DNA of 64,000 nt from Candidatus Helarchaeota archaeon (lineage in GTDB: Archaea > Asgardarchaeota > Lokiarchaeia > Helarchaeales > RDOG01): the NCBI GenBank assembly GCA_019058315.1, contig JAHPZH010000005.1, positions 96,001 to 160,000 of the forward strand, written 5' to 3'. This document shows, piece after piece, positions 1 to 58,127 of the stretch. The translations under genes and the position numbers were made by a program. The notes below the pieces were generated by a model. The model worked only from the letters and a program-made list of their open reading frames with translations, was not told the DNA's origin and ran no database searches. Position 1 is the stretch's first letter. Every line of letters begins with the position of its first letter.

Positions 1-2934
1 AAGAGATGTTTCTGGGAAATTGAATCGAACACTGACCATAGATATTGGGTTTACTGAATCAGTTAAAATTAAACCTAATTTTGCACCCGGCGTACTAGAA
101 CCCCCAAAGCATCTATGAACAACACTTGGACCGCTTGATTTGCCAGCGACTGAATAAAAACCATAACCTGAACCTGAACTTGTGGTAATACCAATTGTTC
201 GTTTATAATCCTTAGTGAAAGATCCTCCCCTTAACATCAGCGCTTCTTCTCCAATATAATATTCACGTGAATAATGTTCGACATCGGTCATAATTGACAT
301 ATATTTTGGATACCCTACTATAGTGGGAAGCACAGAACGAGGACCATCTTCTCCTGCAAAACCCGCATAACTAAAATTCGATCCTAATTCCAAACAGATG
401 GGGTTTCCTTTTGGATCTTTGTATACTTTCGGTTTTACCTTTTTGAGAGATTTGAATTTTATATCAATTTTTTGAATAAATTTTTGTATTTGCCTTTTAG
501 AATCACTCTTTATCAACATTTCATTAAGAACTGCTTTTATTTCGTTTGTAAGGGGAGAATCTTTTGTACAAATTGTATTAAAAATCCTTTCGCTAATATT
601 AATTAAACATTCATCTTCTTGTTCCTTTGTAATATGACCCTCTTTTGATAACTGATGAATATCTGTAACTATTTCTTGATACAAATCAATATTATTATCA
701 TCGATTTGGCTTATCTCATCTTCTGCAGCTATCATTAAGATGTTATTATCATTTACTAGAATCAAACTTTCAGAAATAATTTTTAAAATATTATAAATGA
801 GAGTTTTACTGTTTTTTTCTTTATTTTTTTCTGCAATTTCTTGAATAAGTTCAATTATTTTCCTCTTTACAAGCCTATGATTAACATCTTGTATCATCCC
901 AGCTTTCTTTGTAATTCTTAGAAATTCAAGCCCTGTACCAACTAACTTAGGATTGAGATAAATATAGTGAATTAGTGCATCTAATAGTGCATTAAAATAT
1001 GGTCCATATTCTTTTGTATCCCAACTCAATATTTCTGAATTATTTTTCTTGATAAATTCCTTTTTAAAAAATATTTCTAATGGAGTTTCAATTTTTCGTC
1101 CTAATTGGAGAACAGATGCATCAACTAACATAGCACCTAAGCAGCATGCTATAGCTTTATCATCTTGTAATATTTTAACTTGAAAATTAGCCTTATTACC
1201 GGGTTGATAAGTGCTTTTATCACTTTCAATATCAATTTTTAGCTCTTTTCTCTCAGGATTTACGTAAATCTTTCTTTCATTTTTTTCTAGGATACCATTT
1301 GATCTAAAAGCATATGTTATAACTTTTAAATTACCCCACATCTTTCTAGTGATTGGAATTTTAAAATCCGCCGTTCCCTCAGTTGCAAGCTTCACTGTTC
1401 TATAAATTATATTCTCCTTCTCGATATCGACATAGATAGGAATATTCTCCCTATCAACAACTGCATTTAAATGTAAAAAATCGTTAATATTTAAGCTAGG
1501 GGATTCTATGTTTGTATTAAGCCATATTTTTGGGTTTTCTTTTTCTCCTTCTTTCTGCTCTTTTTCTTCTTTTATTACTGCTTTTTCAACAGTCAGTCCT
1601 TTGCGGACTGTTTTGGATTCATCTAATAATTCCGATTCAATCATGATATTAATATCAAAATTCTTCTTTTTCTCTGTAGGATAATCAATTTCAAAAGTTA
1701 AGGGACATCTTCCTTCATTATCTGTTTTTGCTACTTTGAATTTTGCATGGTGTTTCAGCTCAGTATCATTTATCGAAGCTAAAACAAAACACTCGTTTAA
1801 TGGGACTTTTTTATTTTCTAGGGTTGGAACTTCTGTTTTAATTATTACTTCTGCTTGTTGACCTGGTTCAATACTTCTCGCCATATCTGTTGTTACGATC
1901 AAAGCTTGCTTTACTGTGCTAATTTTTATTTCCTTATTAGCTTTGCGTTTTAAACTGTCAGTAAGTTCAAATATAATTTTAGATTCTCCCTCTTTCATTT
2001 CAGGAACTTGGAACCTATAAATATATTCTCCTTTTTCATCTGTTTCCCCATAAGTTTGGAGAATTTGTTTATTTTCTGGTGATATAATTTCAATTTTAGC
2101 ATTGGCTTTTTTCACGGGTGCTCCGTAAAAATATTCGGACTTTAATTCGAGTCTAAATTCGTCCCCTATTTTTAGATATTCTGGTTCACATTTTACTTTC
2201 AATTCTATGTCTGGTGGTTGATAATTCTCGATTTTAATTGATTTTTCAGATTTAAAACCTTTAACCGAAACTTTAACTTTATAAACTCCTTCTATTGCCT
2301 CTTCAGCTATTGGAATTTGAAGTTCTCCTATCCCAAATTTAGAATCACATGAAATTTTTCTAATAAGTATCCTATTATTTTGTGGATCAGTTAATGTTAC
2401 TTTAATAGGCTCTTGACTTGGTTGATAAGTACTTCCTAACAGTTTCCAAAGGATAAAACGAATAAGTATCCTCTGTCCTGGCATGTAATAATCACGATCT
2501 GTAATCATATAGCATATATATTCTTCCTCTTTTCTGGTAAGATCCAACCTCAAAGTTTTTTCTTTTCCATCAATTTTAACCTTAATTTCATAAAATTTAT
2601 ATTCAGCATCAAATTCAAATTCCAATGAACCTAAATTATCTGTTAATCCCTTAAAAACAGTTTTATTGCCGTTGATCAACTTTACTTTACAATTAATGGG
2701 AAAAAAGTTCTGATCCATACAAATAATACGGCCAGAAATTTTCTCACCTTCTTCGAACTCCGAATTCATTTTAACAAAAATAAGTGGGGGTTCCCTTAAA
2801 TTCGAAATTTGACTGATCAGACTTTGAACTTTCTCAACATCTATTGAAGTTATTTGATTAAGAATATCCACATCAAGTTTATCTTTTTCTTTAATATTGA
2901 GGAGCCTTTTTAGTTTTTTACATGTTGTATCCAA
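1..2934 (-). CDS. Alpha-2-macroglobulin-family (MG-domain) protein, 3'-truncated by the window edge, with actin- and GTPase-derived peptides in the bait-region position
   Basis: Hand translation gives 978 stop-free codons from TTG at 2934 (SD-like AGGTGGT at 2947-2941) to base 1. A2M motifs occur in the expected order: MG2 ITDRDYYMPGQRILIR, ENYQPPDIEL, EYFYGAPV, SDKSTYQPG...LVDASVLQL and post-bait VRFNFPETSL. No N-terminal hydrophobic segment. Not in the supplied ORF track. Confidence 0.88.
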   Translation of the reverse strand, partial: MDTTCKKLKRLLNIKEKDKLDVDILNQITSIDVEKVQSLISQISNLREPPLIFVKMNSEFEEGEKISGRIICMDQNFFPINCKVKLINGNKTVFKGLTDNLGSLEFEFDAEYKFYEIKVKIDGKEKTLRLDLTRKEEEYICYMITDRDYYMPGQRILIRFILWKLLGSTYQPSQEPIKVTLTDPQNNRILIRKISCDSKFGIGELQIPIAEEAIEGVYKVKVSVKGFKSEKSIKIENYQPPDIELKVKCEPEYLKIGDEFRLELKSEYFYGAPVKKANAKIEIISPENKQILQTYGETDEKGEYIYRFQVPEMKEGESKIIFELTDSLKRKANKEIKISTVKQALIVTTDMARSIEPGQQAEVIIKTEVPTLENKKVPLNECFVLASINDTELKHHAKFKVAKTDNEGRCPLTFEIDYPTEKKKNFDINIMIESELLDESKTVRKGLTVEKAVIKEEKEQKEGEKENPKIWLNTNIESPSLNINDFLHLNAVVDRENIPIYVDIEKENIIYRTVKLATEGTADFKIPITRKMWGNLKVITYAFRSNGILEKNERKIYVNPERKELKIDIESDKSTYQPGNKANFQVKILQDDKAIACCLGAMLVDASVLQLGRKIETPLEIFFKKEFIKKNNSEILSWDTKEYGPYFNALLDALIHYIYLNPKLVGTGLEFLRITKKAGMIQDVNHRLVKRKIIELIQEIAEKNKEKNSKTLIYNILKIISESLILVNDNNILMIAAEDEISQIDDNNIDLYQEIVTDIHQLSKEGHITKEQEDECLINISERIFNTICTKDSPLTNEIKAVLNEMLIKSDSKRQIQKFIQKIDIKFKSLKKVKPKVYKDPKGNPICLELGSNFSYAGFAGEDGPRSVLPTIVGYPKYMSIMTDVEHYSREYYIGEEALMLRGGSFTKDYKRTIGITTSSGSGYGFYSVAGKSSGPSVVHRCFGGSSTPGAKLGLILTDSVNPISMVSVRFNFPETSL

Positions 2935-3166: not shown

Positions 3167-4333
3167 TTAGATTACACCATCTTTTTGTAGCTTAGAAATT
3201 TTTTCTGATGTATATCCCAATAATTCCGATAAAACTTCTATGTTATGCTGTCCTAATTCTGGTGCTTTAGTTTTAAAAGACCCAGGACTTTCGGATAATC
3301 TTATAAAAATATTTGGAAACCATGGTTTTTTTTCTGCTTTTGGAAAATCGAATTTATCAACTACCATTTGCCTTGCTATAATCTGAGGGTGTTTGTGTGC
3401 TTCCTCATATGGAACAATTCTTCCCGCCGGAATATGAGCTTTTTCAAGAATTTCCAATAGTTCTTTGACGTTTTTTGATTTAATCCATTCACGAAATATT
3501 GGAAATAATAAATCAGAATTTTCTCTTCGTAGTTTTGTATTTTTGAAGCGTCTATCTTTGAGCAAATCTGGTCTTTCTATTGCTTTACAAAAATTTCTAA
3601 ATTGTCGTTCTGTTGCAACCACAAGAGCAATTGATCCATCTTTTGCCTGATAACAATTATAAGTTGGACGGTCTTTTTCAAGTGTTTCTTTATCAATATA
3701 ACTTAGAATATGTGCCCGAAGATTGTAAGCAAACATCATATCTTGCATTGAAATATCAACGAATTGACCTTTTCCAGTTTTATCTCTAAAGCGTAGTGCC
3801 TCTAAAATCCCTAATGCAACATATGCACCTGCATTTAAATCAGAAAAAGGTATTCTTGGGGGATATGTATAAATTTCATATACATCTAAAATACCGCTTG
3901 TCGCTTGTGCTATTATATCAAATGCTGGTTTTCCCTTGTAAGGACCCGTTTGCCCAAATCCCGTAATTGCTGCATATATTAATTTAGGATTAATTTTTTT
4001 TAATTCTTCATAACCAAGACCTAATCGTGGCATAACATCAGGAGTAAAATTCTCTAATACCACATCAGTTTTTTTTACTAATTCTTTAAAAATTTCACGG
4101 GCTCTAGGTTTTTTAAAATCTAGAGTTATGGATTTTTTATTCCTATTTAAATATGTCAAAAGCGGGTCTATTTCTGGTCGGATCAAACAAGCTAACCTGA
4201 GTGTTTCGCCAAATCCTGGCATTTCAACCTTGATTACCTCCGCTCCCATATCTGCGAGAAGCTGAGATCCCCAAGGACCTGAAAAATATTGAGATAGATC
4301 CAGTACACGAATTCCCTCTAAAGCATCTTTCAT
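3167..4333 (-). CDS. CoA-transferase family III (CaiB/BaiF)
   Basis: LEGIRVLDLS, LADMGAEVIKVE, NRNKKSITLD, ENFTP, GFGQTGPY, APELGQHN motifs. Confidence 0.95.
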   Translation of the reverse strand: MKDALEGIRVLDLSQYFSGPWGSQLLADMGAEVIKVEMPGFGETLRLACLIRPEIDPLLTYLNRNKKSITLDFKKPRAREIFKELVKKTDVVLENFTPDVMPRLGLGYEELKKINPKLIYAAITGFGQTGPYKGKPAFDIIAQATSGILDVYEIYTYPPRIPFSDLNAGAYVALGILEALRFRDKTGKGQFVDISMQDMMFAYNLRAHILSYIDKETLEKDRPTYNCYQAKDGSIALVVATERQFRNFCKAIERPDLLKDRRFKNTKLRRENSDLLFPIFREWIKSKNVKELLEILEKAHIPAGRIVPYEEAHKHPQIIARQMVVDKFDFPKAEKKPWFPNIFIRLSESPGSFKTKAPELGQHNIEVLSELLGYTSEKISKLQKDGVI

Positions 4334-4446
4334 CTAATACCCTCTTTTCTAAAAAATTTATAAAATTTCGGTTGTAATAAAATATGATTTAATTAAAATG
4401 TAAATACTAAATTTAAAAAAATAAAAAAATTTGGGAAAGAAAAAAT

Positions 4447-4551
4447 CTAACGATCAATTTCTGATAAATCAAACCATTTTTCTAATTCTTCGATGTCTTC
4501 TGGGTCTAATTCTCCCCAATCGGGCCATTTTTCTTCTTTTTCTTCTTCCAT
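4447..4551 (-). CDS. 34-aa acidic, Trp-containing small protein (MEEEKEEKWPDWGELDPEDIEELEKWFDLSEIDR)
   Basis: ATG at 4551 preceded by SD-like AAGGTG, 11 nt after the stop of the upstream co-oriented gene; TAG at 4449-4447; below the ORF-track size cutoff. Confidence 0.6.
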   Translation of the reverse strand: MEEEKEEKWPDWGELDPEDIEELEKWFDLSEIDR

Positions 4552-4562
4552 CGGAACACCTT

Positions 4563-4808
4563 TTATAGATTTTTTTCAATCCATTCCTTTAAAGCTTCTT
4601 TTCCGGCTTTTTTTACGTTTTCCGCACTAAAGGAGCCATATTTTTTTACAATTGCTTTTTCTAATTTTGCAAAAGTATCATGTTCCATTACAAAATGCAT
4701 TCTAGGTTTCATTTCATTAAGAAAATATTCAACTATAGTGTCTTGCTCGCGCATATATTCAGAAATATCCTCTTTTTTTATTCCAGGCTTACCTAAAAAT
4801 TCTGCCAT
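4563..4808 (-). CDS. Small hypothetical protein, possible ribbon-helix-helix-like C-terminus
   Basis: ORF with SD-like GTGGTGA; beta-alpha-alpha pattern RMHFVM...EALKEWIEK. Confidence 0.6.
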   Translation of the reverse strand: MAEFLGKPGIKKEDISEYMREQDTIVEYFLNEMKPRMHFVMEHDTFAKLEKAIVKKYGSFSAENVKKAGKEALKEWIEKNL

Positions 4809-4829
4809 AATTAATCACCACTTTTTTGC

Positions 4830-5099
4830 TTATTTTACTCCCTTAGGTACTTTTAAAATCAAAAAATGGCCATCTAAAGGCCAATCGAGAACAACCCTCT
4901 TTCCTTGACTCCATGTACCCTGATAAACACCACCAGTACCGTCTGCCCAATTCGAAATTAGAGCACTGCAAAGTGTTTCAATTTTTAATCCAGCCTTTCT
5001 AGACCATTTTTTTAGTTTTTTCATGGTTTCCTCAGAAATTGAAACTTCTATCTTTTCATTTCTTTCTTCAGTAAAAAATTTTGATGGTTCTTTTGACAT
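4830..5099 (-). CDS. Small protein with CopG/ribbon-helix-helix-like N-terminal half
   Basis: KIEVSISEETMKKLKKWSRKAGLKIETLCSALISNW fits an RHH pattern; SD-like GTGGT upstream. Confidence 0.6.
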   Translation of the reverse strand: MSKEPSKFFTEERNEKIEVSISEETMKKLKKWSRKAGLKIETLCSALISNWADGTGGVYQGTWSQGKRVVLDWPLDGHFLILKVPKGVK

Positions 5100-5158
5100 T
5101 TTTTACCACTTCTTTTTAAAATTAATTTAATTTAAATATTTTACAAATCACCTTAAAC

Positions 5159-6628
5159 TCATTCTTTAAATGCCATTCTTTTATATGTTTTCGCCCAATA
5201 ACCGTCATAAAACAAAGAACTGACTGGAAATCTGGGAGGTGAAGCCATCCTAGGTGTTGCTGGAATTCCTATACTCAATGTTGTAGGAACTATCCAGCTC
5301 CCAGGAATTCCAAGTTTATCCATCCATACTTGTTTACGCCTAGTATCAGCCGCAGTAAGGGCATTAAAACCCATTCCAAGCCCAAGCACCGGACATAAAT
5401 TCCACATATTTTGAATTAACATCGATAAAACCATTGTTGCTGTACTTGTGCCTCCCATTCCACCCCTTGGTTCAAAGTTATATGATGTTTGTATACAAGG
5501 TATTATAGTTGCATAGCTACGTGCTGGATAATACATAAGACTGCCGTCAGCCATATATTCATTAATTTTGGGATATATTGCCTCAGGTAAATACCATAAT
5601 CTATCTGCAACCATCTTCCAAGGAACCATTCCGAAGACAAACTTTGACATTTCCATTCCGCATTTTCCTAGAAATAATTTAGCATCATGATCTCTTGGTT
5701 CCCGTAAGAGAACTAAACGAAAATTTTGCATATTAACCATAGAAGCGGTGTTTCTGGCAGCTTCTAATATTGCTTCAATTTTCCACTCGGGCACCTTACC
5801 GCCTCCATCCTGCTCGTAAACATCATGATTTTCTTTAAATATTCTAATTGATCGTCTTAGATAAATAGAATCAAATACATCCATGTTAAATTCGAAGTCT
5901 TCTGGCATTTGATCCTTTTCATTCACATTTTCTCTAAAAGCAATTCGTCGATAGGGTCTTCCCCAATATCCATCAAATACAAGGCGTTCTAACGGTAATT
6001 TTGGTGCACGTGCAGTTGGATATAGTCGATTACCTTGCTCAGGCATACCAAAACATAGCCCAGCGAAGAGTTCCCAATCATGAGGAACACCCAATTTATC
6101 CTTTATCATCATTGCAGTGCGTTCTGAAGCAAAGGGTGCTGTTACAATAGACATTCCTACATTTTTACCAACTGAAGCGGTCCACATATTTTGAATTCCG
6201 GTTGCACAGACTACTGCACCGAATTCTGGTGGAGCTACCATATAGGGAGTGTCATACCAATTGCCATTTCCTATAGCCAAAACGAAAGTATCACACTTTT
6301 CAATAATATCCCCAGCAGTCTCATTTTTTGTCCATTTTTCGATATATAGGGGGCGGACCTCTGGGGGTATATTTTTTAGTCGTTCATTTAAAAGTGGTGC
6401 AGGAAGCATAGTTTTTCCGTGAATGTGGATTTCTCTACACATTTTAGCAACCCAATTTTTTATATCCTCATCCTTAACAATTATAAACCGTAAATGCTGA
6501 ACATTCTCCGGCGAGGGGGCCCACCGAGCCGCGTCATAAATGCCTTCCATTACTTCAGGTTCTATTTCACGCTCTGGTTTAAAGGTTTTAACCGAGGACC
6601 TTAACATTAATGCATCATAAATATTCAT
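5159..6628 (-). CDS. Tandem two-domain nitroreductase-family flavoprotein
   Basis: Two copies of R(R/S)S(V/I)(K/R)xF ... WAPSPENVQ / NTASMVNMQ ... QNMW, each ending in PxLP/RFP...F(Y)DGYW. Confidence 0.9.
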   Translation of the reverse strand: MNIYDALMLRSSVKTFKPEREIEPEVMEGIYDAARWAPSPENVQHLRFIIVKDEDIKNWVAKMCREIHIHGKTMLPAPLLNERLKNIPPEVRPLYIEKWTKNETAGDIIEKCDTFVLAIGNGNWYDTPYMVAPPEFGAVVCATGIQNMWTASVGKNVGMSIVTAPFASERTAMMIKDKLGVPHDWELFAGLCFGMPEQGNRLYPTARAPKLPLERLVFDGYWGRPYRRIAFRENVNEKDQMPEDFEFNMDVFDSIYLRRSIRIFKENHDVYEQDGGGKVPEWKIEAILEAARNTASMVNMQNFRLVLLREPRDHDAKLFLGKCGMEMSKFVFGMVPWKMVADRLWYLPEAIYPKINEYMADGSLMYYPARSYATIIPCIQTSYNFEPRGGMGGTSTATMVLSMLIQNMWNLCPVLGLGMGFNALTAADTRRKQVWMDKLGIPGSWIVPTTLSIGIPATPRMASPPRFPVSSLFYDGYWAKTYKRMAFKE

Positions 6629-56296: not shown

Positions 56297-56839
56297 TCAA
56301 ATTCCTTTATGTATTGATTTTTGCCAATATTCAAATGCAAGTTTAGCCAATTCATTAAAAGCCTCCTCCACACCTTGACCTTCTTTGGCTGATGTTTCAA
56401 TATAGGGACAAGGAACTTGGTCTGCAAAAGATTTTGCATCTTTTTCACGTATAGTCCTCATAATCTCCAGATCCACTTTATTTCCAATGAGAACTATGGG
56501 AATCCTCCCTGTAAAGCTCCAAAGATCCTTTATCCATTTAAGAATATTAGGACTGAATGTTGTATAACGAGTTAAATCAAAGACAACTAAAGCTCCTGAA
56601 GCTTCTTTATAAAATGCTTGGCGTATAAATTTAAATCTTTCTTGTCCTGCAATATCCCAAATGGAGAGAGTTATTTGATTCTCGCCATTATTGAGGGATA
56701 CATCCTTCACAAAGAGGTCACAACCTACAGTCATCTTATATTCCTTTTGAAAGACATCATTGACGAATCTTTTAATCATAGTGGTTTTTCCAACAGCTGC
56801 ATCCCCTATCAATAAAATTTTAAATTTATATCTTACCAT
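56297..56839 (-). CDS. Rab-like small GTPase
   Basis: FKILLIGDAAVGKTT, YKMTVGCD, IWDIAGQERF, GNKVDL, ETSAK; ATG at 56839; no C-terminal Cys. Confidence 0.93.
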   Translation of the reverse strand: MVRYKFKILLIGDAAVGKTTMIKRFVNDVFQKEYKMTVGCDLFVKDVSLNNGENQITLSIWDIAGQERFKFIRQAFYKEASGALVVFDLTRYTTFSPNILKWIKDLWSFTGRIPIVLIGNKVDLEIMRTIREKDAKSFADQVPCPYIETSAKEGQGVEEAFNELAKLAFEYWQKSIHKGI

Positions 56840-56855
56840 TTTAAATACTCGATTT

Positions 56856-58127
56856 TTATTTTTTCTTCGTTGAAAATGCAGCATAAGCTTTTAAATATAC
56901 TTTAACCGGGATTATTTTTGGATTACGTCTAAAACTAGCCGGAATTTGAGCACCACAGCGAGAACATAAATCAGAACTTCTAAGCCAATCTTTAAATGCG
57001 TCTGCATGGGCAGGATGTTTACAATTAGGGCATAAGATTATACCCCTTCCTTTATCTGAAGGTTTAGGTAATTGAAAACAGAATATGCATTTAAAATCCT
57101 CAACGGTTATTACTCCTGCTACTGGCAATAATTCTTTTAATTTTCGACTAATTTGAGGCTTTTTTTTCTGATCAGGCACTTGAACACGGGATTGCCTTTG
57201 AACTCTTGTAATTCGAACTGTGGGTTTTTGGCGACGAGGTCTTGATACAGTAACAGTGGGCTTTTGACTAGGGCGACGATTTGTTGGAATATTTGATCTT
57301 GGTCTAATAGGGGTTCTCCTTCGTGTAGTTGGGATATTAAAATCCCTTAATTGTGGAGGAGGTCTCATTTCTGTAGTTATCTCTGGCATAGTATAGGGTG
57401 CAGTTGATTTCCCATACCTAATTGATAAAATTAATGAATAAATACATAAGAAAATTACAATTAAACTAGGATTTTGGTGAGTAGGTTTCAATGGAAAATA
57501 AAAAAAGTCAATATAATAATAAAAAAGGATAAGATAGACAAATTCAACCATAAATATATAAAAAGTACATAGATTTCCAAACTTTCTACCAGTTGTCGAT
57601 TTTTGGCCTATATGGACTACGTGATATTTTTTAAAACATGAATATAGTGAATATAAAGAATAAAGAAAGTAGGGAGCGGCAAATATAATATTCCATGTAC
57701 TCAAATATAATTCGCTCCCAGTCAAGATATTCCATTCCAGAATATTAGTAAAATTACCCCACAAGCTAAATAACATTCCCATAGATAGCGTGCCGGAAAT
57801 GAAAAAAGAAGTATTATGTGGTGAATTGAATTCACGGTGGTATTTTATTAATGAGAAAAATTTGATAGTAAAACAAAACCAAAATCCTATCAATAACCAA
57901 GAAATAAACAGAGCGGAAACATTTCCGATAGCTCTATTAAATTCTAAAGAAAAATAAAGAATATATACAAACACATTTATTGTATTTAAATTGAAATAAT
58001 CATAAATTATCATAAAAGCTAGAAATGTGAGATAATCGTTCTTCGATACAATTAAAGAAGTGGTATTTATTACCGCAATTATTAAAAAAAGCAAAAATAT
58101 GATAAAATACCATCGTTTTTTAACCAA
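56856..58127 (-). CDS. Polytopic membrane protein with C-terminal RING-like finger (putative E3 ligase)
   Basis: About 7 TM helices, Arg/Pro-rich linker, CIFC...CPNCKHPAH...DWL...CSRC; inside the ubiquitin-like operon. Confidence 0.8.
   Translation of the reverse strand: MVKKRWYFIIFLLFLIIAVINTTSLIVSKNDYLTFLAFMIIYDYFNLNTINVFVYILYFSLEFNRAIGNVSALFISWLLIGFWFCFTIKFFSLIKYHREFNSPHNTSFFISGTLSMGMLFSLWGNFTNILEWNILTGSELYLSTWNIIFAAPYFLYSLYSLYSCFKKYHVVHIGQKSTTGRKFGNLCTFYIFMVEFVYLILFYYYIDFFYFPLKPTHQNPSLIVIFLCIYSLILSIRYGKSTAPYTMPEITTEMRPPPQLRDFNIPTTRRRTPIRPRSNIPTNRRPSQKPTVTVSRPRRQKPTVRITRVQRQSRVQVPDQKKKPQISRKLKELLPVAGVITVEDFKCIFCFQLPKPSDKGRGIILCPNCKHPAHADAFKDWLRSSDLCSRCGAQIPASFRRNPKIIPVKVYLKAYAAFSTKKK

Follow-up and report, generated by a model that had tools for sequence, protein, structure and literature searches.

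Why should a thioester protein of an archaeon carry, within its trigger loop, a peptide that reads as the end of actin? Proteins of the alpha-2-macroglobulin (A2M)/thioester type are ancient innate-immunity molecules whose baits are normally short, fast-evolving and exported. The question is raised by the first lines of a 64,000-nucleotide stretch of a Candidatus Helarchaeota archaeon metagenome-assembled genome (MAG; contig JAHPZH010000005.1, positions 96,001 to 160,000; G000:C2:96001-160000), referred to here as the window. Positions 1-2934 of the window hold, on the minus strand, the first 978 codons of gene P0002, which encodes a thioester A2M of 1650 amino acids. The frame has no stops and extends past the window start to the gene end at G000:C2:93985, and DNA beyond the window start was added to complete it. 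The peptide SGPSVVHRCF in this protein is a selected copy of the C-terminus of the host lokiactin, and it forms part of the flexible A2M bait. Judged from its sequence, this bait joins several mimics of host proteins, namely a stretch of actin (residues 7-67) whose D-loop is near-native, a switch-I-like motif of Ras type and, in one clade, the actin tail.

The Actin Tail Peptide

A preliminary description of this DNA had placed SGPSVVHRCF, followed by two glycines, at window 106-135, and direct translation of the minus strand finds it there. The reverse complement reads AGC GGT CCA AGT GTT GTT CAT AGA TGC TTT followed by GGG GGT, and the peptide corresponds to residues S934-F943 of P0002. The same description took it for a copy of the C-terminus of actin, which agrees with the actins of the host and its relatives. 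The main actin of the host, lokiactin P0003 (378 amino acids, on G000:C5), ends EIGPSVIHRCF and is identical to the bait at eight of nine positions (GPSVVHRCF in the bait, GPSVIHRCF in actin). Lokiactin ends GPxV[IV]HRCF in each of the 24 related genomes checked, so that host and related Asgard actins share this form of the tail and do not end in a clearly different sequence. The terminal peptide of lokiactin is nevertheless internal in the bait, where it has no free end. BLASTP of the bait with P0003 gives two collinear matches, that of the tail having 9 of 12 identities with actin 367-378 (E = 2e-4 in this single pairwise comparison).

Among 200,000 composition-preserving shuffles of the 67-residue linker, none gave eight of nine identities to GPSVIHRCF, the best being seven, reached once. 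A loose regular expression for the tail matches two places genome-wide (six-frame open reading frames [ORFs] of at least 50 amino acids, 5.8-Mb genome), namely the actin C-terminus and the bait. With blastp-short against the whole proteome, the actin end is the top non-self match of the linker at 30.8 bits, a score attained against any target by just 8 of 300 linker shuffles.

The tail DNA of the bait and that of the actin gene are identical at 20 of 27 bases, with serine encoded by AGT and TCT respectively and three more synonymous differences. As the peptide has been retained despite these changes, the bait tail is an old copy maintained by selection and not a recent duplicate. In the 61-codon actin piece found upstream in the same bait, third positions are identical at 23 of 61 codons despite 41 identical residues, synonymous sites being saturated.

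Domain Organization and Position of the Bait

P0002 has Pfam matches to MG2 (residues 142-224, 1e-14), A2M_BRD (residues 494-611, 3e-11), A2M (residues 976-1064, 1e-14) and bMG10 (residues 1539-1634, 3e-9), all above the curated cut-offs, as well as to TED_complement (residues 1172-1447, 5e-28). The thioester motif GCVEQ is intact at residue 1184, and all six members of the family described below possess GC[VT]EQ. These domains and the motif place P0002, as far as sequence can tell, in the A2M/thioester protein family. There is also a match to Pfam Actin at residues 844-901, which covers only profile positions ~5-56 of 410.

The assignment of the tail peptide to the bait region, likewise made in the preliminary description, is upheld by comparison with characterised relatives. 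The post-bait strand MVSVRFNFPETSL (P0002 966-978; window 1-39, minus strand) includes VRFNFPET (P0002 969-976), the conserved A2M motif after the bait. This aligns with TVRKYFPET at residue 730 of human A2M (TVRKYFPETWIW) and with CD109 (HVRKHFPETWIW), directly after the baits of both proteins, and the strand is invariant in all six homologs. Since the tail precedes V969 by 26-35 residues, it occupies the canonical bait position. In this family the bait is a flexible segment that acts as the trigger when proteases cut it; in frog A2M it comprises residues 694-717, followed by nine residues that thread through the MG2/MG3/MG6 'latch hole' into MG6 (10.1101/2021.09.22.461418). By likeness to the frog protein, the final ~10 residues of the last bait segment of P0002, GGSSTPGAKLGLILTDSVNPIS (P0002 944-965; window 40-105, minus strand), which runs into the MG6 strand, may thread the latch hole in the same manner.

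No N-terminal hydrophobic stretch and no lipobox were found in P0002. The first 70 residues are hydrophilic in all six homologs (maximum 15-residue Kyte-Doolittle mean 0.71-0.96), and the first ~55 are also conserved among them. The proteins encoded by the partner genes, a pseudo-actin and von Willebrand factor A (vWA) proteins, have N-termini likewise without a hydrophobic stretch, and those copied in the bait are cytoplasmic. From the hydropathy of its N-terminus, P0002 is seemingly cytoplasmic.

Composition of the Bait

The bait insert (P0002 614-965, ~350 amino acids) comes after the A2M_BRD domain and before the VRF strand. It contains, in order, a helical domain (614-840), actin 7-67 (843-903), GG, FTKDYKRTIGI (906-916), a Ser/Gly linker, the tail (934-943) and a linker of 22 residues. 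The helical domain (227 amino acids; window 415-1095, minus strand), ahead of the actin piece, is modelled by AlphaFold2 as all helices with pLDDT 80-93, ~190 amino acids being confidently predicted, and occupies the slot of the complement anaphylatoxin domain. Fold searches returned only generic alpha-solenoids or helical repeats and no specific PDB relative; the best Foldseek match had E = 0.011 and the best VIA match, a designed repeat, had Z = 9.4, both below the level that is meaningful for helical proteins. A profile of the domain matches its own six-member family only among 1.84 billion representative proteins. Everything after it, the last 135 residues of the insert, has pLDDT 21-38 and is predicted to be unstructured or flexible from an alignment of only six sequences. 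It had been suggested that the N- and C-terminal actin pieces might pack into a mini subdomain 1; the model has no such packing, a weak test with so shallow an alignment.

The first actin piece (P0002 G843-G903; window 226-408, minus strand), identified by BLASTP and Pfam Actin, consists of a degenerate phosphate-1 (P1) hairpin and a near-native subdomain 2 with its D-loop. It is identical to host actin at 41 of 61 residues (67%, E = 7e-28), with ~82% identity in the subdomain-2/D-loop half and ~46% in the nucleotide-binding hairpin, where the bait has ELGSN instead of DNGTG. The piece is near-invariant in all six homologs and, like the tail, it is old and under selection. The two pieces are collinear with actin, 7-67 upstream and the tail downstream, in keeping with the claim that both ends of actin are present in the right order.

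The ~30 residues between them had been described as unrelated, which does not hold for FTKDYKRTIGI (P0002 F906-I916; window 187-219, minus strand), identified by pattern search and short-peptide BLAST. Outside the bait, the genome has the DYKRTIG motif solely in Ras-like GTPases, 20 of which contain it in switch I: there are 21 ORFs genome-wide with the pattern [DE]Y[KR]x[ST][IVL]G, of which 20 have a Walker A motif ~20 amino acids upstream (one of these confirmed as Ras family by Pfam) and the remaining one is the bait. After actin, the best short-peptide matches of FTKDYKRTIG are GTPase switch I sequences, for example GAFQKDYKMTIG, at 28.2 bits, a score attained by 77 of 300 shuffles and by itself not significant. 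The bait of homolog P0010 has DYKRSIGAD, and those of P0009 and P0011 have [ST]IG[VI]D. An alternative origin of the segment is diverged actin 68-80, as phmmer aligns it to yeast actin LTLRYPIEHGIVT; its identity is 8/14 to GTPases versus 3/13 to host actin. A Ras-family small GTPase, one of ~20 in the genome, is itself encoded in the window at 56300-56890 on the minus strand (Pfam Ras, 1.5e-49), with switch I FQKEYKMTVG.

The Ser/Gly-rich linker TTSSGSGYGFYSVAGKS (P0002 917-933; window 136-186, minus strand) joins the switch-I-like motif to the tail, and comparison with the homologs shows its TTSSG part to be common to P0008 and P0009. Neither this linker nor the last segment has a significant match elsewhere in the proteome, and the linkers of the homologs have none in the proteome of this genome. 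A Roadblock-like reading of the last linker was dropped, its matches having E = 11-24 only. The LRG at the end of the actin piece is followed by an extra G, so that P0002 899-904 (window 223-240, minus strand) includes LRGG, which also occurs in P0012, the other four homologs having LG[AG][GA]G. A ubiquitin-like reading of this motif was rejected: the small GG-ending proteins of the genome end IRGG or IKGG, and no matching GG-terminal protein was found.

Pseudo-Actin and vWA Partners

When host actin was searched against the genome with tblastn, the third match fell 2 kb beyond the end of the A2M gene, in the same orientation. This gene, P0004 (G000:C2:90962-91888, L003:2962-3888, minus strand), encodes 308 amino acids that match Pfam Actin profile positions 65-408. 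The protein begins MVLR exactly at V68 of host actin, and the actin piece of the bait ends LRG67. P0004 has lost the phosphate-2 loop (DSGTG replaced by RLK-N), the GGST adenosine loop, the catalytic Gln and the RCF end, the last being replaced by an extension, and is by these losses a pseudo-actin with a dead nucleotide site. The ~300 central residues of actin, previously described as replaced, are indeed absent from the bait, but they are encoded as a separate and conserved gene in the same operon. Of the two origins that had been proposed, separately captured peptides and an inserted actin gene reduced to its exposed segments, neither covers a pseudo-actin in the operon that starts at V68.

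The pseudo-actin is 43-45% identical to lokiactins and 37-39% to eukaryotic actins. Identity to lokiactin is 45-55% in subdomains 1 and 4 and lowest, ~30%, in subdomain 3 (the barbed-end groove). Throughout the family, the C-termini of the pseudo-actins have lost RCF and bear extensions, and their own GPxI[IV]H tail segment is retained. Modelled alone by AlphaFold2 from the six-sequence alignment, the pseudo-actin has a mean pLDDT of 45, too low for the model to be informative. At the old metal-binding pair of actin there is covariation between the two proteins, with Glu in the bait (actin D13) accompanied by Arg in the pseudo-actin (actin D156) in five of six pairs and, in the pair of P0012, Ala in the bait accompanied by His. 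This covariation is a suggestive hint (n = 6) that the bait and pseudo-actin polypeptides touch.

Between the A2M and pseudo-actin genes are two tandem paralogous vWA genes (L003:3895-5965, minus strand; Pfam VWA, MIDAS motif DSTGS). The order after the A2M is P0006, P0005 and P0004, with intergenic gaps of 16, 4 and 6 bp. P0005 and P0006 are 56% identical to each other and consist only of a helical N-terminal part of ~120 amino acids and the VWA domain. No PDB sequence match was found for the vWA protein, and in the atlas searched it matched only generic VWA clusters. The cassette neighbors of P0002 continue with a CoA-transferase, a nitroreductase and a response regulator.

Homologs and Distribution

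Five homologs of P0002 (P0008-P0012, 56-60% identity), all with a Pfam Actin match, were found among 5.8 billion proteins searched, in Lokiarchaeia and 'Freyarchaeota' MAGs and sediment metagenomes. The next A2Ms are ~25% identical and lack a Pfam Actin match, and these distant A2Ms have no vWA or actin neighbors. Within the family the A2M-vWA-truncated actin cassette is present in all six members, the truncated actins having 302-311 amino acids and starting MVL[RK]. The vWA gene is duplicated in this genome only, the other five cassettes having a single copy. Just two of 400 Asgard species genomes carry the family, namely this one and G158, a genome of another class that is the host of P0009; the family is absent from all 40 nearest relatives of this genome. 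This patchy distribution suggests transfer or repeated loss.

In a maximum-likelihood tree the homologs form clade A (P0008,(P0002,P0012)) and clade B (P0011,(P0009,P0010)). The tail region reads GPEIVHRSC in P0008, GPSVVHRCF in P0002 and GSDVVHESF in P0012, whereas the clade B proteins have no tail and instead have [ST]IG[VAI]D and YY[RK]GG. A ubiquitin-like reading of the latter was also rejected, YYRGG being no commoner in G158 than a reversed control. The expectation that the motif would be conserved in A2M homologs thus stands for the three members of clade A, in which the tail is recognisable, and fails for the other three. The tail was thus gained or lost once and is best preserved in this genome; since it is absent from three of six members and decaying in two more, it is not essential to the system. 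The own actin of G158 ends GATAIHRCF and its bait lacks a tail. The lokiactin gene of G158 is read in two frames near its 3′ end (matches 2-347 and 342-378), which is probably an assembly frameshift.

A2Ms with longer actin inserts, proposed as possible evolutionary intermediates, were sought among long proteins, 1.84 billion representatives, 400 Asgard species genomes and metagenome contigs of the Joint Genome Institute (JGI), and none was found in these collections; the JGI contig search recovered P0011 only. The cassettes of clade A share neighbors, these being genes of acyl-CoA/CoA-transferase-type metabolism, a major facilitator superfamily (MFS) transporter and a response regulator (window 3167-6628 and L003:1649-2536; L035, L038/L039). 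This sharing suggests vertical inheritance within the clade, not a defence island.

Comparison with Known Systems

Like human A2M, CD109 and insect TEP1 (PDB 6tav, 9fx2, 2pn5), P0002 has a macroglobulin (MG) body, a thioester domain (TED) with a CxEQ thioester and a receptor/MG10 domain, and its bait is inserted directly before a VRxxFPET strand. Its best PDB sequence matches are CD109 (E = 7e-18) and A2M (2e-13). Unlike these proteins, it lacks a signal peptide, its bait has ~350 rather than ~40 amino acids and holds a folded helical domain, copies of host actin and a GTPase-like motif, and its family is always encoded with vWA and pseudo-actin genes. The type I A2Ms of bacteria (Escherichia coli ECAM/YfhM and Salmonella Sa-A2M; PDB 5a42, 4u48) are likewise prokaryotic thioester proteins of ~1650 amino acids with bMG5/bMG10-type domains. 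However, they are periplasmic lipoproteins paired with PBP1c, whereas P0002 has neither a lipobox nor a pbpC neighbor. Any A2M outside the six-member family is at most ~25% identical to P0002.

There is also a likeness to complement C3/C4/C5 together with factor B/C2, where the anaphylatoxin slot of a thioester protein likewise holds a helical domain and a MIDAS-vWA protein works alongside. In contrast to factor B/C2, P0005 and P0006 lack a serine-protease domain; the helical domain of P0002 has no specific similarity to anaphylatoxin, and the P0002 system is seemingly cytoplasmic.

Lokiactin (PMC9834061; closest solved chain 9wc4_A, 'HC1 actin') is the source of the bait pieces. The bait holds fragments of it only, and in neither the bait piece nor the pseudo-actin have the nucleotide-binding loops survived. 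The Actin fold (Pfam PF00022) is incomplete in each, the bait covering profile positions ~5-56 of 410 and the pseudo-actin 65-408 without DSGTG and GGST.

In plants, the integrated decoys of NLR (nucleotide-binding leucine-rich repeat) receptors such as RRS1-WRKY and RGA5-HMA place a piece of a pathogen-targeted host protein in an immune sensor, and an attack on this piece sets the sensor off. The analogy is functional only: the receptor class is unrelated, and the P0002 decoy would belong to a covalent trap and serve as its cleavable substrate.

Possible Function of the Cassette

The reading favored here is that the bait serves as an intracellular decoy. An endoprotease directed at actin and possibly also at small GTPases would cut the decoy in place of its real target, and could come from a virus, a mobile element, a competitor or the cell itself. 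Cleavage of the bait would free the A2M latch, upon which the exposed thioester would cross-link the protease and the protein body would cage it. The pseudo-actin (actin 68 to the end) would probably dock on the actin strands of the bait, so that the D-loop would be offered in a native-like actin context, and the vWA protein may act downstream as an adaptor. Effector proteases that cut switch I are known, examples being GtgE and RRSP. The bacterial actinases grimelysin and protealysin cut only the D-loop bond Gly42-Val43 of actin (PMC7311988). The decoy reading is preferred because it covers most of what was observed, namely selected host-derived peptides, their position in the trigger loop, a thioester that is intact, the absence of any export signal and an obligate pseudo-actin that starts at V68. 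We regard the chances that it is correct as evenly balanced.

Several points weigh against it. No candidate protease gene was found near the cassettes, whose neighbors are metabolic genes and not defence islands, and PADLOC returned no match. No RNA dataset is listed as carrying the cassette, the sole full carrier being the likely source sediment metagenome. The tail is missing from clade B and decaying in P0008 and P0012, and the real actin tail ends in a free carboxylate, which an internal peptide lacks. Actin cleaved in its D-loop stays folded, and if the pseudo-actin holds both halves together a cut might not release the latch. We know of no characterised precedent for a cytoplasmic thioester A2M.

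In F-actin the longitudinal contact brings together two elements of actin, the D-loop and the C-terminal tail, and the conserved pieces of the bait are exactly subdomain 2 with its D-loop and the tail. The A2M might thus be coupled to the cytoskeleton, with the D-loop, tail and docked pseudo-actin allowing it to cap, join or sense lokiactin filaments or actin-binding proteins and the thioester serving some other attachment. The hydrophobic pattern kept by the N-terminal strands, which a linear decoy would not need, points the same way, as do the obligate three-gene cassette and the 45-55% identity of the pseudo-actin to lokiactin in subdomains 1 and 4. This reading nonetheless leaves unexplained why the pieces occupy the very loop whose cleavage triggers the A2M mechanism, why a switch-I-like motif stands beside them and why the thioester has been kept in all six members. 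The tail is moreover dispensable in one clade, and the barbed-end groove of subdomain 3 is the least conserved part of the pseudo-actin. We consider such coupling unlikely.

The exactness of the split, with the bait piece ending at LRG67 and all six pseudo-actins starting MVL[RK] at V68, could also be taken to mean that the bait does nothing but complete the pseudo-actin. It would then supply in trans the subdomain-1 elements that the pseudo-actin lacks (strands 7-32, subdomain 2 and the HRCF end), the tail being a folding piece and no decoy. The loss of RCF from all pseudo-actin C-termini, with extensions in its place, and the Glu/Arg versus Ala/His covariation across the split agree with such complementation. 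As the pseudo-actins retain a GPxI[IV]H segment of their own, however, the bait tail would be redundant, and clade B has similar pseudo-actin ends without any bait tail. The AlphaFold2 model, in which the N and C pieces do not pack, also speaks against it, weakly. Complementation as the sole role is quite improbable in our view.

A simpler history would be that a whole actin gene was inserted in frame into the bait and lost its middle, so that the tail is a decaying remnant without function. The native order of the two actin ends would follow from this, and the loss of the tail in one clade and its erosion in P0008 and P0012 would be expected; A2M baits are, besides, fast-evolving in general. 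The tail of P0002, however, is still identical to actin at eight of nine residues despite synonymous divergence of its codons, while the linker around it cannot be aligned between homologs, and no intermediate with a longer insert turned up in the collections searched. It is very unlikely that the tail is such a leftover.

Chance resemblance or an assembly chimera, for which the shortness of the peptide (10 residues) and the 6.6% estimated contamination of the MAG might be cited, is effectively refuted by the shuffle test and by the recurrence of the architecture in six independent assemblies from different sources, and with a 61-residue piece of the same protein only 30 residues away we put its probability close to nil.

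Significance

No paper linking Asgard archaea, A2M/thioester proteins and actin was found among those of the library searched. P0002 is a member of the A2M family that differs in its seemingly cytoplasmic location, the make-up of its bait and its partners, and there is a fair chance that the cassette is new as a system; the obligate A2M-vWA-truncated actin cassette would be an undescribed system even if the decoy idea fails. Here a seemingly intracellular bait copies cytoskeletal and, apparently, signalling proteins of the host, and it does so in the archaea that stand nearest to eukaryotes. Should the decoy reading be true, it would for the first time hint at hostile proteases that target Asgard actin and small GTPases, and it would be a prokaryotic example of integrated-decoy immunity. 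The bait and pseudo-actin would then also form a natural split (pseudo-)actin, useful for studies of actin folding and D-loop recognition.

A broader proposal, which we offer tentatively and regard as doubtful, is that Asgard archaea possess an intracellular complement-like, 'effector-triggered' defence. In it, a cytoplasmic thioester protein would have a trigger loop of concatenated decoys modelled on eukaryote-type proteins of the host (actin D-loop, actin tail and Ras/Rab switch I). A dead pseudo-actin would complete this loop in trans, and a vWA protein would serve as the adaptor for its read-out. If this were the case, parasites of Asgard archaea would already have attacked actin and small GTPases with proteases, and decoy immunity based on thioester proteins would predate the eukaryotes.

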